The position numbers and the translations under genes are program-made. From Bacteroidia bacterium (GTDB lineage Bacteria > Bacteroidota > Bacteroidia > NS11-12g > UBA9320): DNA of 64,000 nt. Position 1 is the first letter of the stretch; the number at the start of each line of letters is the position of its first letter. This document shows, in pieces, positions 53,717-61,297 of the stretch. Under the pieces are notes generated by a model, which saw nothing but the letters and a program-made list of their open reading frames with translations, did no database searches and was not told the DNA's origin. The DNA lies in the NCBI GenBank assembly GCA_965216465.1, contig CBDCFW010000001.1:319020-383019 (forward strand), given 5' to 3'.

Positions 53717-54958
53717 ATGCAAAGAATACTAATATTAGGAGCTGGAACATCAGGTACTATGATGGCCAACCACCTTCGTAAAAGACTTCCTGTAAGCGAT
53801 TGGAATATTACTATAGTTGACAAAGACGAAACGCACTATTATCAACCTGGTTTCTTGTTTGTTCCCTTCGATATTTACAAGCCAAAGCAAACCAAAAAAT
53901 CAATCGATAAATTCATTCCTAAAGGTGTTGACCTTTTAAGATCTAAGATTGACCGAATCGATAAAGACAACAATCAGGTCATTCTTGAAAGTGGAGTGAA
54001 GCTTGGTTATAACATTCTAATTGTAGCAACCGGAACCAATATAGCTCCTGAAGAAATTGAAGGAATGCTTGGCAAAGAATGGCACAAGAGCATTTTCGAT
54101 TTCTACACCTACGACGGTGCAAAGAACTTAAGAAATAAATTGAGAGAATGGCAAGGAGGTAAGTTGGTTGTTCATATAGCTGAAATGCCTATCAAGTGCC
54201 CTGTAGCCCCTCTTGAATTTGCATTCTTGGCTGATTCTTATTTCATCAACAAGGGTATGCGCGATAAGGTTGACATCACATTTGTTACTCCCATGGACGG
54301 TGCATTTACCAAACCTAAAGCAACAGCTGAATTGAATCACCTCCTAGAAGAAAAAGGAATAAAAATCGTTCCTAACTTCAATATTGAACGTGTCGATTCT
54401 GAGAACAATAAGATTATAGACTATGCCGAAACCGAAGTAGAATACGATTTGCTCGTTACCGTTCCGACAAACATGGGTGATGAGATGATAGAACGTAGCG
54501 GAATGGGTGATGATTTGAACTTCGTTCCAACCAATAAAGCTACGCTTCAAACTAAGATAAAAGACAACATTTTCGCAATAGGTGATGCAACGAATATTCC
54601 AGCATCTAAAGCAGGGTCTGTTGCCCACTTTGAAGCAGAAATACTTACCGAAAATATTCTTCGGTATATCAATAACGAGCCGTTAAAAGAAGAATTTGAT
54701 GGTCATGCAAACTGCTTTGTTGAAACAGGACATGGCAAAGCATTGCTAATTGACTTTAACTATACACACGAGCCTGTAACAGGAACTTTTCCGCTACCCG
54801 GAGTGGGACCATTAAGCTTGCTTAAAGAAACGCACATGAACCACTTAGGTAAGTTAGCCTTTAGATGGGTTTATTGGAACATGCTCATCCAAGGAAAACA
54901 CATTCCATTTGTTTCAGCAACAATGAGTACAGCAGGAAAAGATCTAGAACCAGGATAA
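53717..54958 (+). CDS. sqr: Sulfide:quinone oxidoreductase (type III-like)
   Basis: ILGAGTSG FAD motif, HYYQPG, IKCPVAPLE (first Cys), IGDAT...KAGSVAH and GHANCFVE (second Cys). Confidence 0.8.
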   Translation: MQRILILGAGTSGTMMANHLRKRLPVSDWNITIVDKDETHYYQPGFLFVPFDIYKPKQTKKSIDKFIPKGVDLLRSKIDRIDKDNNQVILESGVKLGYNILIVATGTNIAPEEIEGMLGKEWHKSIFDFYTYDGAKNLRNKLREWQGGKLVVHIAEMPIKCPVAPLEFAFLADSYFINKGMRDKVDITFVTPMDGAFTKPKATAELNHLLEEKGIKIVPNFNIERVDSENNKIIDYAETEVEYDLLVTVPTNMGDEMIERSGMGDDLNFVPTNKATLQTKIKDNIFAIGDATNIPASKAGSVAHFEAEILTENILRYINNEPLKEEFDGHANCFVETGHGKALLIDFNYTHEPVTGTFPLPGVGPLSLLKETHMNHLGKLAFRWVYWNMLIQGKHIPFVSATMSTAGKDLEPG

Positions 54959-54986
54959 AATTATAAAAACTTAAAAACCCAATATC

Positions 54987-55298
54987 ATGACAGAAAGAAC
55001 ATACGCCGGACAAACACTTAAGACCAGTGAACAAGGCTACCTCGAAAATTTAAACGATTGGAACAAGGAAATTGGACTTGAAATTGCCAACGAAGAAAAT
55101 GTACAAATGACTGACGAACACTGGAAAGTGGTTGACTACATTCAAGATCAGTACAAACAAGAAATACCACTTACGATTCGTAAGGTTGGTAAAAGCGGAA
55201 TTGTAAGCATCAAAGAATTTTATCAGCTGTTTCCAGATGGACCGTTGAAAAAGGCAAGTAGAATATCTGGTATTCCTAAACCTGCTAGTTGTATTTAA
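54987..55298 (+). CDS. tusE: TusE/DsrC-family sulfur carrier (single C-terminal Cys, TusE-type)
   Basis: GYL.N..DW, MTDEHWKVV, YQLFPDGP and ISGIPKPASCI. Confidence 0.88.
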   Translation: MTERTYAGQTLKTSEQGYLENLNDWNKEIGLEIANEENVQMTDEHWKVVDYIQDQYKQEIPLTIRKVGKSGIVSIKEFYQLFPDGPLKKASRISGIPKPASCI

Positions 55299-55350
55299 AC
55301 TTGACCTAACGCCTAATAACCCCTTTGTTAAATCATAAAAATCAGAAATC

Positions 55351-55830
55351 ATGGAAGAATCAAAAAAAATAAAAAAGATGATGTTAATCATCTCTAAGGC
55401 TACCTTAGAAAACGTATACGCTGGATTTATCTTAGCCAATGGTGCAAGAATGGAAGGAATTGAGTCTGAAATATTCTTCACCTTCTTTGGGCTCGAGGCC
55501 ATTCAAAAGAAAAAATTAAATGATTTGCACGTGGCTACTGTAGGTAATCCTGCAATGCACATCCCTACTATGATAGGTGGCTTACCAGGTATGGAGGCTG
55601 TTGCAACCAAGATGATGAAATCTAAAATGGAACAACTTGACATCCCTCCTGTAGACGAATTCCTTGAAATACTAACTGCCTCAGGATCTAAACTTTGGGC
55701 ATGTAAGCTTGCCATGGAAATGTTTAATCTTACAGAAGAAGACTTAATCGACGATGTTGATGGTGTTCTAACTGTTGGCGACTTCTACGAAAGAGCAGAA
55801 GGCGAAAGAACTCACATGGTCTTTATATAA
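55351..55830 (+). CDS. DsrE2/DsrE-DsrF-DrsH-like sulfurtransferase
   Basis: FILANGA, IFFTFFGL and KLWACKLAMEMF (conserved Cys). Confidence 0.85.
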   Translation: MEESKKIKKMMLIISKATLENVYAGFILANGARMEGIESEIFFTFFGLEAIQKKKLNDLHVATVGNPAMHIPTMIGGLPGMEAVATKMMKSKMEQLDIPPVDEFLEILTASGSKLWACKLAMEMFNLTEEDLIDDVDGVLTVGDFYERAEGERTHMVFI

Positions 55831-57356: not shown

Positions 57357-58547
57357 ATGAATATTCACGAATATCAAGCAAAAGGAATTCTTAAATCTTT
57401 TGGTGTAGCTATACAAGAAGGTGTAGTGATAGACAAAAAAGAAGATGCTTTATCTGCCGTTAAAAACCTTAGAGAAGAAACAGGTACCGACTGGGTAGTC
57501 GTTAAGGCTCAAATTCACGCTGGTGGTAGAGGTAAAGGAGGCGGTGTTAAGCTAGCCAAAAATGACGAAGAATTGGTTCAAGTTGTTGATGATATTCTTG
57601 GCATGCAGCTTATTACTCCACAAACTTCTAAAGAAGGTAAGAAGGTTAATAAAGTACTTATTGCACAAGATGTTTACTACCCAGGCGAGAATGAGCCTCA
57701 AGAATATTACATGAGTGTTCTTTTAGATAGAGCATTAGGCCAAAATGTAATTATTTACACCACAGAAGGTGGGATGGATATTGAAGAGGTAGCTCACAAC
57801 ACTCCAGAGTTAATTCACAAAGAATGGGTTGATCCTGCAATTGGTCTTCAACCTTTCCAAGCACGTAAAATTGCCTTTAACCTAGGTCTTTCAGGAGATG
57901 CATTTAAAGGTATGGTGAAGTTTGTAAATGCTCTTTACAAAGCATATACTTCTATCGATGCTTCATTATTTGAAATTAATCCAGTATTAAAAACTTCTGA
58001 CGATAAAATTATAGCTGTTGACAGTAAGGTAACGCTTGACGACAACGCACTATACAGACACAAAGACTACGCTGCACTTCGCGACGAGACCGAAGAAGAC
58101 CCAACTGAAGTAGAGGCAAAAAAGCACCACCTAAACTTTATTAAGCTTGATGGTAATGTAGGATGTATGGTAAATGGTGCCGGACTTGCTATGGCCACTA
58201 TGGACATCATTAAACTTAGTGGTGGTGAACCTGCAAACTTTCTTGATGTTGGAGGAGGTGCGAATGCAGAAACTGTAGAAGCTGGTTTCCGTATTATCCT
58301 AAAAGATCCTAACGTTAAAGCTATCCTGATTAATATTTTTGGAGGAATTGTTCGTTGCGATAGAGTAGCAAACGGTGTTGTTGAAGCCTATAAATCAATT
58401 GGAGAAATTGATGTACCAATTATTGTTAGACTTCAAGGAACGAACGCTGAAGAAGCGAAGAAAATAATTGACGAAAGCGGACTTAAAGTGGTTTCTGCAA
58501 TTGTATTGCAAGAAGCTGCAGATAAGGTGCGTGAAGTTTTAGCATAA
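57357..58547 (+). CDS. sucC: Succinyl-CoA synthetase beta subunit (ADP-forming)
   Basis: MNIHEYQAK, KAQIHAGGRGKGGGVK, GCMVNGAGLAMATMD, NFLDVGGGA, NIFGGIVRCD and VRLQGTN. Confidence 0.98.
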   Translation: MNIHEYQAKGILKSFGVAIQEGVVIDKKEDALSAVKNLREETGTDWVVVKAQIHAGGRGKGGGVKLAKNDEELVQVVDDILGMQLITPQTSKEGKKVNKVLIAQDVYYPGENEPQEYYMSVLLDRALGQNVIIYTTEGGMDIEEVAHNTPELIHKEWVDPAIGLQPFQARKIAFNLGLSGDAFKGMVKFVNALYKAYTSIDASLFEINPVLKTSDDKIIAVDSKVTLDDNALYRHKDYAALRDETEEDPTEVEAKKHHLNFIKLDGNVGCMVNGAGLAMATMDIIKLSGGEPANFLDVGGGANAETVEAGFRIILKDPNVKAILINIFGGIVRCDRVANGVVEAYKSIGEIDVPIIVRLQGTNAEEAKKIIDESGLKVVSAIVLQEAADKVREVLA

Positions 58548-58555
58548 AAATTATC

Positions 58556-58598
58556 AAAACAGGCTAGCACGGGAGAAAACCGGCTGGCCTGTTTTTTT
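58556..58598 (+). terminator. Intrinsic terminator after sucC
   Basis: aaaacaggctagc...gctggcctgtttt stem running into a T7 tract. Confidence 0.7.
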
Positions 58599-58600
58599 AT

Positions 58601-59221
58601 ATGGCAGAATTCATTGAGATAAATCCAAACAATATTGATCAACGAAAAATTGATCAGATTGTAGGCGAGTTGAAAGTGGGAAATTTAGTAATTATCCCAA
58701 CTGACTCGATTTATGCCATTGTTGGAGATCTTTATCATAAAGATGTATTGAATTCAATTTGTAAACTCATCGACAAAAAGCCTAACAAGGTGAATCTTTC
58801 AATTCTGTGTAATGGATTGAGTAATTTATCAGAGTTTACAGCACAAATAGGTAATTCTACGTATAAATTGATGAAGCGTCTTTTACCAGGACCTTATACG
58901 TTTATTCTTCGCGCTAGCCACAGCGTTCCAAAAATCTTTAGGCAAAATAAAAAGACGATTGGTATTCGTGTTCCTGATAATTCAATAGCTCAAGCGATAA
59001 TCTCCTCCCTAGGTCATCCTGTAGTTTCAACTTCCATTCATGCCGAAGATGAAATTCAAGAATACTTGACAGAGCCAGAAGAAATTTATGAAGTTTGGAT
59101 GAATAAAGTTGCGGCTATTGTAGACGGAGGAGCCGGACATAACGTTGGAACCACTATATTTGACGCAACGCAAAATGAAGTCGAACTGGTTCGTGAAGGG
59201 CTTGGAGCAGACAGAGTTTAA
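58601..59221 (+). CDS. Sua5/YciO/YrdC-family protein (L-threonylcarbamoyladenylate synthase-like)
   Basis: IIPTDSIYA, LPGPYTFIL, TIGIRVPD, STS and VDGG...TTIFD. YciO-like. Confidence 0.9.
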   Translation: MAEFIEINPNNIDQRKIDQIVGELKVGNLVIIPTDSIYAIVGDLYHKDVLNSICKLIDKKPNKVNLSILCNGLSNLSEFTAQIGNSTYKLMKRLLPGPYTFILRASHSVPKIFRQNKKTIGIRVPDNSIAQAIISSLGHPVVSTSIHAEDEIQEYLTEPEEIYEVWMNKVAAIVDGGAGHNVGTTIFDATQNEVELVREGLGADRV

Positions 59222-59258
59222 AAACAAATGAAAACCTTAATGTTAAATAAGAGCTAGA

Positions 59259-59552
59259 ATGAAGTTGACCATAAAACTTATTACGCTTTTTTTGATTACC
59301 CTAATTGGCTTTAATTCAGTTGGCGAGTTGATTAGTGTCAATGATCAAGCGGTTCTCATTGAAAACATTGACTTTGAAGAACCTGACAAGACAGAGAAAG
59401 AAGATAAATCTGAAGAAGACAAAGAAATAAACAGCCACGATGGTTTTGACTCAGAAAAAATTAAACCTGCTGGCTATAATTTACACTTTAATCATTACAC
59501 CGGCTCTGTTTTTGCTGGCATATATACTCCCCCTCCGGAGATTAACTCTTGA
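59259..59552 (+). CDS. Small protein with signal-like N-terminus and C-terminal TPPPE motif; candidate leader peptide of sulP
   Basis: Hydrophobic N-terminus, E/K-rich linker, His-containing segment and C-terminal IYTPPPEINS. Confidence 0.7.
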   Translation: MKLTIKLITLFLITLIGFNSVGELISVNDQAVLIENIDFEEPDKTEKEDKSEEDKEINSHDGFDSEKIKPAGYNLHFNHYTGSVFAGIYTPPPEINS

Positions 59553-59613
59553 TTCAATAGGCTTTCCGACTTCGGTCAAACATTAAAAATTTTTAAAAGA
59601 GTTAATATAATTT

Positions 59614-61236
59614 ATGCAAAAATATTTTTCGACCTTAAAGTCTGACATTCCAGCAGGCTTGGTAGTTTTTTTAGTTGCGATACCACTATGTTTAGGTATT
59701 GCTGCTGTAAGTGGTGTTCCAGCATTTTCAGGATTAATTGCTGGACTTGTAGGAGGTATCATTGTCGCTTTAATTAGTGGATCTCAAGTAGGTGTTAGTG
59801 GACCAGCCGCAGGATTAGCGGTAATTGTTTATGATGCCATGCAAAGTTTTAAAGAGGAGACTACGGCCACTGACGAGATGCTCATCAGCCTTGAAGCACT
59901 GCAAATGTTTCTACTTGCTGTAGTAATTGCCGGAGTTATTCAGTTAATACTAGGTTTTCTGAAAGGCGGTATAATCGGCTACTACTTCCCCTCTTCTGTA
60001 ATTAAAGGAATGTTGGCAGGTATCGGCTTAACCATCTTCCTTAAAGAAGTACCTCATGCTCTTGGTTATGATAAAGACATGGAAGGTGATTTTAGTTTCT
60101 GGCAGATGGATGGTGAAAACACTTTCACTGAGCTACTCAATGCCTTTGGTAACCCAGACCTAGGTGCAGTATTGATCTCTGTGGTCGGTTTGCTAATTAT
60201 GGTTTTATGGCAAACGAAAGCATTCCAAAAGATTAAGGCATTCCAAATTATCCAAGGTCCCTTAGTGGCCATATTAGTTGGAGTGACATTTGTGATGTTG
60301 TTCGCCGGAACTTCATTTGAAATGATTCAAGAACATTTGGTTAAGGTTCCTGTAGCTAGCTCTACTAGCGAATTTATCAGCTTCTTTACAACACCAAACT
60401 TTGGTGCTATAGGTAATCCTTTGGTTTGGAAAACAGCTGTTGTAATTGCTATAGTTGCGAGTTTAGAGACACTTCTTTGTGTTGAGGCAACAGATAAACT
60501 GGATCCTCAAAAACGAGTTACTCCTACCAACCTTGAACTTAAAGCTCAAGGTGTTGGAAACATCGTTAGTGGTTTGATTGGAGGACTTCCAATCACCCAG
60601 GTAATTGTTCGTAGTTCTGCAAATATTCAAAGTGGCGGAAAAACAAAGATGGCTGCATTTTATCACGGTATTTTCATTCTCGTGTTCGTGGCTTTCCTTC
60701 CCCATCTGTTGAACCAAATTCCACGTGCAAGTTTGGCGGCTATTTTAATTATAGTTGGATATAAACTAGCAAAACCTGAGCTGTTCAAGCAAATGTGGAA
60801 AGCAGGTAAAAATCAATTCGTTCCTTTTGTTGTAACGATTCTTGTTATCGTATTTAAAGATCTACTTTGGGGTGTGAGCATTGGATTAGTGATTGCAGTA
60901 TTTGAAATCTTGTATTTGAACTACCGCAAACCGTTCCTAGTTGATCTTGACTCAGACGAGAAGAAGTTTGTATTCAAACTGTCTAGAGACGTTACATTCA
61001 TACACAAGGCAAGTATTCTTGGAACATTGAAAAACATCCCAAATGATACTAAGGTTGTAATAGATGCATCACGATCGGTTCACATACATCCTGACATTCT
61101 TGAAATCATTGATAACTTCAAGACCCACGCCGAGTACGCGAACATAGAAGTTGATGTAATTTTCAACAAAGACCTTAATCAATCAAATTCAAAAGAAGAA
61201 TTTGAAGAATTGCTGAGGACGTACCGTAAAAAATAA
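59614..61236 (+). CDS. SulP/SLC26 family inorganic anion (probably bicarbonate) transporter
   Basis: DIPAGLVVFLVAIPLCLGIA, VSGPAAGL, IVASLETLLC, LPITQVIVRSSANI and a STAS-like C-terminus. Confidence 0.93.
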   Translation: MQKYFSTLKSDIPAGLVVFLVAIPLCLGIAAVSGVPAFSGLIAGLVGGIIVALISGSQVGVSGPAAGLAVIVYDAMQSFKEETTATDEMLISLEALQMFLLAVVIAGVIQLILGFLKGGIIGYYFPSSVIKGMLAGIGLTIFLKEVPHALGYDKDMEGDFSFWQMDGENTFTELLNAFGNPDLGAVLISVVGLLIMVLWQTKAFQKIKAFQIIQGPLVAILVGVTFVMLFAGTSFEMIQEHLVKVPVASSTSEFISFFTTPNFGAIGNPLVWKTAVVIAIVASLETLLCVEATDKLDPQKRVTPTNLELKAQGVGNIVSGLIGGLPITQVIVRSSANIQSGGKTKMAAFYHGIFILVFVAFLPHLLNQIPRASLAAILIIVGYKLAKPELFKQMWKAGKNQFVPFVVTILVIVFKDLLWGVSIGLVIAVFEILYLNYRKPFLVDLDSDEKKFVFKLSRDVTFIHKASILGTLKNIPNDTKVVIDASRSVHIHPDILEIIDNFKTHAEYANIEVDVIFNKDLNQSNSKEEFEELLRTYRKK

Positions 61237-61239
61237 CTC

Positions 61240-61274
61240 AAAAGAAAGGCCTTAATTAAGGCCTTTCTTTTTTT
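61240..61274 (+). terminator. Intrinsic terminator after sulP
   Basis: Perfect palindrome aaaagaaaggccttaattaaggcctttctttt followed by a T-tract. Confidence 0.85.
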
Positions 61275-61297
61275 AAAATAATGTGTAGTTTTGGGCT

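Follow-up and report, generated by a model that had tools for sequence, protein, structure and literature searches.

A candidate exported proline-arrest leader upstream of a SulP anion transporter gene in Bacteroidota

Introduction

How might synthesis of a membrane anion transporter be controlled when its gene follows a short reading frame that ends in prolines and whose last codons can pair with the transporter's own start region? The question is raised by a sulP gene in the 64,000-nucleotide stretch of a Bacteroidia genome analysed here (the window), where an original prediction held that the preceding frame encodes a ribosome-arrest leader peptide, with a pause at its prolines freeing the sulP initiation region. 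The regulation of inorganic-carbon and pH homeostasis in heterotrophs is poorly known and, to our knowledge, exported proline-stall leaders have been characterised for protein-export and copper genes only.

Here, we describe the leader, the stem that it forms with the sulP start and its recurrence at related loci. The comparative evidence, drawn from sequences, partly supports the original prediction, and the leader is probably a cis-acting, co-translationally exported arrest peptide of the CutF/SecM kind that controls sulP translation. This kind of device is known, what is new being its target, the lack of a metal site, a masked site that is not a Shine-Dalgarno sequence and a possible voltage or pH input; a literature search, in which subscription journals were sparsely covered, returned no paper in which SulP or carbonic anhydrase (CA) has an arrest leader. 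A version free of metal sites before SulP or CA would extend such leaders to inorganic-carbon and pH homeostasis in heterotrophs and would show stall-and-melt switching in Bacteroidota, a phylum in which ribosomes disregard Shine-Dalgarno sequences. It also allows the potential-driven pull on acidic nascent segments, so far a matter of engineered constructs, to be tested as a natural sensor.

The candidate leader and its probable transcription unit

The reading frame, its IYTPPPEINS end and the PPP codons lie exactly where they had been placed (Table 1), the prolines being residues 91-93 of 97, with 61 nt between the leader stop and the sulP ATG at 59614. The leader start has A-3, A-12 and A-13. 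The signal-like character claimed for the N-terminus is in keeping with a hydrophobic core (2.7) and, in the AF2 model, with a helix over residues 2-26 that is the sole ordered part (pLDDT 86/78) of a prediction of low confidence overall (pLDDT 55.6, and below 50 for residues 28-70); core and helix are compatible with a signal or an anchor. The net charge of the peptide is -8 over the stretch 38-64 residues ahead of the prolines versus -2 over the stretch 8-37 residues ahead of them.

Table 1. Positions of the leader, the predicted stem, the transporter gene and associated elements (window coordinates unless a locus is named)
Feature	Position	Strand	Evidence or remark
Candidate Bacteroidota -7 promoter box TATATTTG	59155..59162	+	within yciO/tsaC 3' end
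Leader ORF, 97 aa	59259..59552	+	no Pfam family at E 0.1
Signal-like N-terminus, residues 1-22 (Lys n-region, hydrophobic core)	59259..59324	+	Kyte-Doolittle 11-mer 2.7
Acidic spacer block, residues 35-56, predicted disordered	59361..59426	+	37-58 residues before last Pro
IYTPPPE C-terminal motif, candidate pause site	59520..59540	+	PPP codons 59529-59537; PP invariant in 14/14 aligned leaders
Masking stem 5' arm, leader's last codons	59541..59550	+	fold, pair probabilities
GAC-UUCG-GUC hairpin in stem loop, marginal	59568..59577	+	pair probability 0.36
Masking stem 3' arm, -17 to -8 of sulP start	59597..59606	+	fold, pair probabilities
SulP/SLC26 anion transporter, 540 aa	59614..61236	+	PF00916 E 7e-63
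Intrinsic terminator-like hairpin and U-run, end of leader-sulP unit	61240..61274	+	fold
Palindrome copies at leaderless loci	L005:2347-2381, L006:5931-5943, L007:2245-2279, L008:2423-2457, L009:4883-4895		

The short gap, the terminator-like hairpin behind sulP and the lack of any TAnnTTTG box between leader and sulP in the window together point to one mRNA for both genes. A weak candidate for its promoter is the box at 59155, which is the sole TAnnTTTG from 58335 to 61285 and is without the canonical -33 spacing; such boxes also stand before sucC and after the sulP terminator, and these boxes and the best relatives of the SulP both indicate a Bacteroidota host. We rejected a sigma-70-like match, TTAAAA-17-TATAAT at 59583-59611 (4 such matches versus 3.4 expected), which is of the wrong promoter type and which would start transcription at or beyond the sulP ATG.

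Further upstream, a strong terminator-like hairpin follows sucC (58556-58603), its U-run stopping two bases before the yciO/tsaC ATG (58601), and the yciO/tsaC start is the most closed of 39 ORF starts in the window (27.4 kcal/mol). Expression of yciO would be weak, by read-through of this hairpin.

A predicted stem over the sulP start

The 10-nt complementarity claimed between the leader's last codons and -17 to -8 of the sulP ATG is exact, 59541-59550 being the reverse complement of 59597-59606, and folding of the region places all 10 pairs in the minimum free energy structure with pair probabilities of 0.79-0.93. The folding energy of the whole region is ordinary (-15.2 kcal/mol, z -1.13, with 30 of 200 shuffles equally good). 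Pairing between the arms, observed at 10.1 expected pairs, is matched in 7 of 400 versions of the intergenic region shuffled by dinucleotide, and 9 or more expected pairs are reached at two of 26 control gene junctions, one of them the terminator behind sulP; these controls came from the window and from 12 of 21 loci, four near-duplicate and five GC-rich plasmid loci having been excluded. The cUUCGg hairpin described between the arms is at its exact position but marginal: it competes with an alternative pairing (0.5), it is missing from the folds of two related loci (L010 and L015, below), and a conserved hairpin was rejected.

In the window, the cost of opening -20 to +10 falls from 7.1 to 4.1 kcal/mol once a ribosome footprint blocks the 5' arm, a modest gain of 3 kcal/mol. 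A weaker alternative fold keeps part of the start paired after occlusion, the unpaired fraction at -15 to -6 being just 0.20 to 0.38, and a modelled terminating ribosome opens the stem about as well as one stalled at the prolines. Since the sulP start is not unusually closed, ranking as the 13th most open of the 39 ORF starts in the window (a noisy control in which first ATGs were used), repression would be modest.

In Flavobacterium/Bacteroidota, structure at -20 to +20 reduces initiation, and the adenines found to be positive are A-3, A-6, A-12 and A-13 (Baez et al.; PMC6847099). The sulP start carries T-3, T-6, T-12 and G-13. The idea that the stem hides an A-rich upstream region is therefore not upheld, none of the four adenines being present, and the stem would act as general structure rather than by adenine masking.

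Recurrence at related loci

We compared the window with 25 other sulP/carbonic-anhydrase loci, 15 from one genome scan and 10 from plasmid records. A rule that takes frames of 60-170 aa whose N-terminus is hydrophobic and whose last 15 residues include PP selects four of the 561 short ORFs that the window and these loci contain. Each of the four immediately precedes sulP or CA-sulP; centring the loci on sulP makes such matches likelier, but each locus also has several other genes, on both strands. The recurrence anticipated by the original prediction is thus found in part: a leader with the same plan (hydrophobic N-terminus, acidic spacer and PP 2-4 residues before the stop) and divergent sequence stands in 3 of the 25 loci, and the arm after the prolines pairs in two of the three, but 22 loci have no leader, including 9 of 11 from Bacteroidota. 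It is absent from all nine non-Bacteroidota plasmid loci, and a single Bacteroidota locus was among the matches listed when plasmids and phages were searched with SulP, SulP-CA and CA.

In Crocinitomicaceae (L010), the leader heads sulP and has the tail YLSTPYSPPDVTV. Here, as in the window, the stem arm begins 4 nt after the last Pro codon; its bases differ from the window's, and its partner is -24 to -9 of sulP, a pairing of 10.3 expected pairs that 11 of 400 shuffles reach. With the arm blocked, -20 to +10 opens at a cost of 2.1 rather than 6.4 kcal/mol. This locus has a TAnnTTTG box just before the leader and none between leader and sulP. In Halobacteriovorax (L015; tail YLSIEPPPIKA), the leader stands before CA (PF00484) and then sulP, and its final Pro codons, together with the bases that follow, pair with -17 to -6 of the CA gene, the Shine-Dalgarno sequence GGAG included (16.9 expected pairs, 0 of 400 shuffles); the corresponding opening cost falls from 17.1 to 6.2 kcal/mol. 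The gaps between leader and next gene in the window, L010 and L015 are 41-61 nt long and filled by the start-masking stem.

The third leader, in Fulvitalea (L016; tail DISTPPPEC), also heads sulP, across a gap of 301 nt (2682-2982) in which no pairing with the start region was found (0.0 pairs) and whose first 60 nt have C mildly over G (13 vs 9). Output here may be of a different kind, Rho polarity for example. Accordingly, a stem that masks the initiation region and is close enough to the stall site for a paused ribosome to reach is predicted for the window, L010 and L015, and not for L016. The four leader-bearing SulPs are scattered over a 23-protein tree (four changes), so the leader loci are not near-copies, and the tree support is compatible with a single origin too.

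Five of the leaderless loci (L005-L009) instead have an adjacent TetR-like gene and, upstream of sulP-CA, one or two copies of the palindrome ATAGYAWTRCTAT, which is likely to be an operator for transcriptional control there. The palindrome is not in the window, and L016, which has both a TetR gene and a leader, holds no exact copy. At two further loci (L012:625-690 and L013:5930-5994), the SulP gene closely follows the end of an ORF that looks transposase-like by eye, and 32-33 nt separate the SulP ATG from the stop of a short frame with the end YHSSP* or YHSPP*. These ends may be leader remnants after insertion; as no masking stem is formed, they were left out of the leader count.

A family conserved at its two ends

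Searched as a single sequence, the leader retrieved no homologue besides itself, and Pfam, NCBIfam and Rfam yielded no real match. Profile searches added relatives P0005-P0018; a library-wide profile search from seven leaders found five proteins, one of them new, and is too diffuse to give a family size. Fourteen aligned leaders have 17-29% identity to the window's, a weak similarity that, with the yield of just five proteins, makes common ancestry no more than possible. All share PP, and nearly all a Tyr ahead of it; a Glu in the spacer is also conserved, and the tails, such as YTPPP, YSPPD, IEPPP and STPPP, are summarised by the pattern (I/V)Y-x(0-4)-PP(P)-(E/D). Conservation is restricted to the N- and C-terminal ends, the middle being acidic and disordered.

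The geometry of these peptides is more regular than their sequence. In 13 of 13 leaders, 81-94 residues separate the hydrophobic core from the last Pro, and the net charge at 40-44 residues before this Pro is negative, with the 35 residues closest to the prolines about neutral on average. In five lineage representatives this charge contrast beats shuffles jointly (0 of 20000), with charge intervals chosen after seeing the data; singly it is non-significant for the window leader (p 0.07) and for P0003 of Fulvitalea (p 0.44). The three histidines reported for the window leader are present (H60, H76 and H79) but not conserved, and the aligned leaders share no Cys or His position, the relatives having 0-3 Cys and 0-4 His.

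In the ESM Atlas, all 30 leader matches are unnamed clusters, the top three from Bacteroidota (0.93). The nearest named feature neighbours are CzcI/DUF2946, DUF6660 and DUF6769 clusters (0.86-0.88), which are leads only, and twelve relatives gave no match to any of these families at E 1. A tblastn search of plasmids with relative P0013 gave nothing at E 10.

The transporter and its likely substrate

The window SulP scores under the BicA, DauA and sulP NCBIfam cut-offs. Of 24 related sulP loci, 17 have a beta-CA that adjoins SulP or is fused to it, and CA-linked SulPs have been argued to carry bicarbonate (PMC6458275); the window itself has no beta-carbonic anhydrase gene. The protein thus belongs to a group usually linked to beta-carbonic anhydrase and its substrate is probably bicarbonate, as judged from CA linkage in related loci for a SulP that lies below the named cut-offs. 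Elsewhere in the window (53717-55830), genes for a sulfide:quinone-reductase-like flavoprotein, a DsrC/TusE-like protein and a DsrE2-like protein stand in a row, a sulfur-detoxification or sulfur-relay cluster.

A proposed switch and its input

In the mechanism that we propose, leader and sulP would share a single mRNA on which, when it is free, the leader's last codons are predicted by folding to pair with -17 to -8 of sulP and to dampen initiation. The signal sequence would thread the nascent chain into the Sec translocon, and the ribosome would slow at the (I/V)Y-x(0-4)-PP(P)-(E/D) tail, where its footprint would hold the 5' arm and free the sulP start; occlusion by the footprint is computed, whereas the pause is one that we infer. 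The length of the pause would be set by the pulling force on the exported part, a weak pull giving a longer pause and more SulP, together with more CA where the two are linked. As TPPP stalls ribosomes of E. coli the least, or nearly the least, of the XPPP motifs (PMC4176338), a useful pause would need the upstream tail or a particular condition.

The original prediction had read the histidines as a ligand site. H76 and H79 are 14-17 residues before the last Pro, so they would be inside the ribosome tunnel during a stall, and as no His position is conserved either, a His metal or ligand site was rejected. Engineered Asp5 segments experience a potential-dependent pull about 50 residues from the arrest site (bioRxiv 310698). 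With the histidines failing and the acidic block matching this pull position, the input that we favour by analogy, possible but doubtful even if the switch is real, would be the membrane potential or the pH of the periplasm, either acting through the acidic block that lies 38-64 residues ahead of the prolines. A wider and rather unlikely version would make the metal-free leader a gauge of membrane voltage or periplasmic pH: the potential would draw the acidic segment through Sec and end the proline pause, and a lower pull would prolong the pause and raise synthesis of the bicarbonate transporter and CA. Leaders of this sort would then be found ahead of SulP in several phyla, those of Bacteroidota and Bdellovibrionota ending in PP tails and others in RAPP tails.

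Simpler readings have to be weighed against an arrest peptide. Because the terminating and Pro-stalled footprints open the stem alike, TPPP stalls weakly and no ligand residues are conserved, the locus could be a case of plain translational coupling, in which any ribosome that finishes the leader melts the stem, the prolines are a constant slowdown and nothing is sensed. We hold this to be distinctly unlikely; it leaves unexplained why an export signal, a constant distance from signal to PP and an acidic block should stand before SulP across lineages. A metal sensor of the CutF/CruR type, in which the exported part binds a metal such as Zn, the cofactor of CA, through His, Cys or carboxylates and alters the stall, would accord with the named feature neighbours, leads though they are, with the three histidines and with acidic residues that could bind cations. 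It becomes very improbable in view of a window leader that has no Cys at all, relatives without a conserved Cys or His position, the placing of H76 and H79 in the tunnel and the lack of a Pfam match to DUF2946/CzcI, DUF6660 or DUF6769.

Two other accounts concern the stem itself. Were the output a transcriptional polarity of the CruR type, the stalled ribosome would block intergenic Rho termination rather than expose a start; this suits L016 best, with its long gap, no stem to the start and 13 C against 9 G, but the short gaps of the window, L010 and L015 are occupied by the start-masking stem, and the chance that polarity is the explanation is slim. The same slight probability attaches to coincidence, that is, an unrelated small secreted protein followed by an AU-rich random match. 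A fold z-score of just -1.13, the two control junctions that pair equally well and the many sulP loci without a leader would all be expected from it; that four of four rule matches are directly upstream of sulP or CA-sulP, and that the pairing recurs in two independent loci, would not.

Comparison with known arrest leaders

SecM, MifM and CruR were the analogues first named for the leader; the closest characterised system is CutF of Rhodobacter capsulatus, a PPP- and EF-P-dependent switch (bioRxiv 2025.02.05.636593) that combines a signal and PPP with a stem over the ribosome-binding site (PMC9973294; bioRxiv 2025.02.05.636593). CutF-like proteins are defined by size, signal and C-terminal PP, and 40% are from Bacteroidota after normalising (PMC9973294). 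The leader resembles them in its 97 aa (<150 aa), its PPP near the C-terminus (PP within 15 residues of the end) and a same-strand gene 61 nt downstream (<1000 nt), the short gap containing a predicted stem that covers the initiation region of that gene; its hydrophobic N-terminus could be the Sec-type signal that they carry, or an anchor. It differs in having no CXXXC, His-rich motif or DUF2946 match: zero Pfam families are found at E 0.1, PF11162 and CzcI included, and the region about 45 aa before the prolines holds no CXXC/CXXXC or His-rich motif. What it would control is an inner-membrane anion transporter, alone or together with carbonic anhydrase, and not a metal gene, and the site masked in Bacteroidota is not a Shine-Dalgarno. 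The leader would thus work like CutF without being a member of CutF/CruR (DUF2946). The text of the CutF-like survey names no SulP or CA neighbour (PMC9973294), though its Fig. 6B and File S1 may list some, and none is named in the available portions of PMC8456105 and bioRxiv 2022.11.11.516240.

CruR, a DUF2946 protein of Bordetella pertussis, is also a uORF with a C-terminal di-proline and with an export signal, as is probable for the leader (PMC9426467). Its sensor part is about 45 residues before the motif, where CruR has CXXC and the leader has the acidic block; both the CXXC and the RAPP of CruR are absent from the leader, and CruR acts through Rho termination across a 162-nt gap, its own signal not being needed (PMC9426467). 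The monitors of Sec and YidC, which include Bacteroidota Pro-stop types, have a localisation signal, a spacer of more than 30 aa, a conserved proline-containing C-terminus and a stem masking the next gene (PMC10987492), features that the leader shares, with its signal putative and its stem predicted. Unlike them, the leader precedes SulP (PF00916) or CA (PF00484) rather than secA, secDF or yidC, and its motif is (I/V)Y-x-PP(P)-(E/D) rather than RAPP/RAGP or Pro-stop. DUF6660 and DUF6769, small secreted proteins of Bacteroidota, are similar in language-model features (0.86-0.87), size and phylum, but no Pfam match to them was obtained at E 0.1 for the window leader or at E 1 for 12 relatives.

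The R-A/G-P-P motif of RAPP-type arrest peptides (ApdA/ApdP/RQH, CruR) is absent from the leader family, and for want of a RAPP motif the window leader falls outside the RAPP/RGPP uORF screen of PMC12992588. The source table of that study (Figure 4/4B RAPP list) nevertheless holds at least 15 SulP-upstream ORFs among the 8,420 RAPP rows examined, a raw count. They form a cross-phylum parallel to the window leader that goes undiscussed in the study, the available main text of which contains no mention of SulP. In 13 of the 15, the motif is within 8 residues of the C-terminus; most have a hydrophobic N-terminus and several, by eye, have acidic runs.
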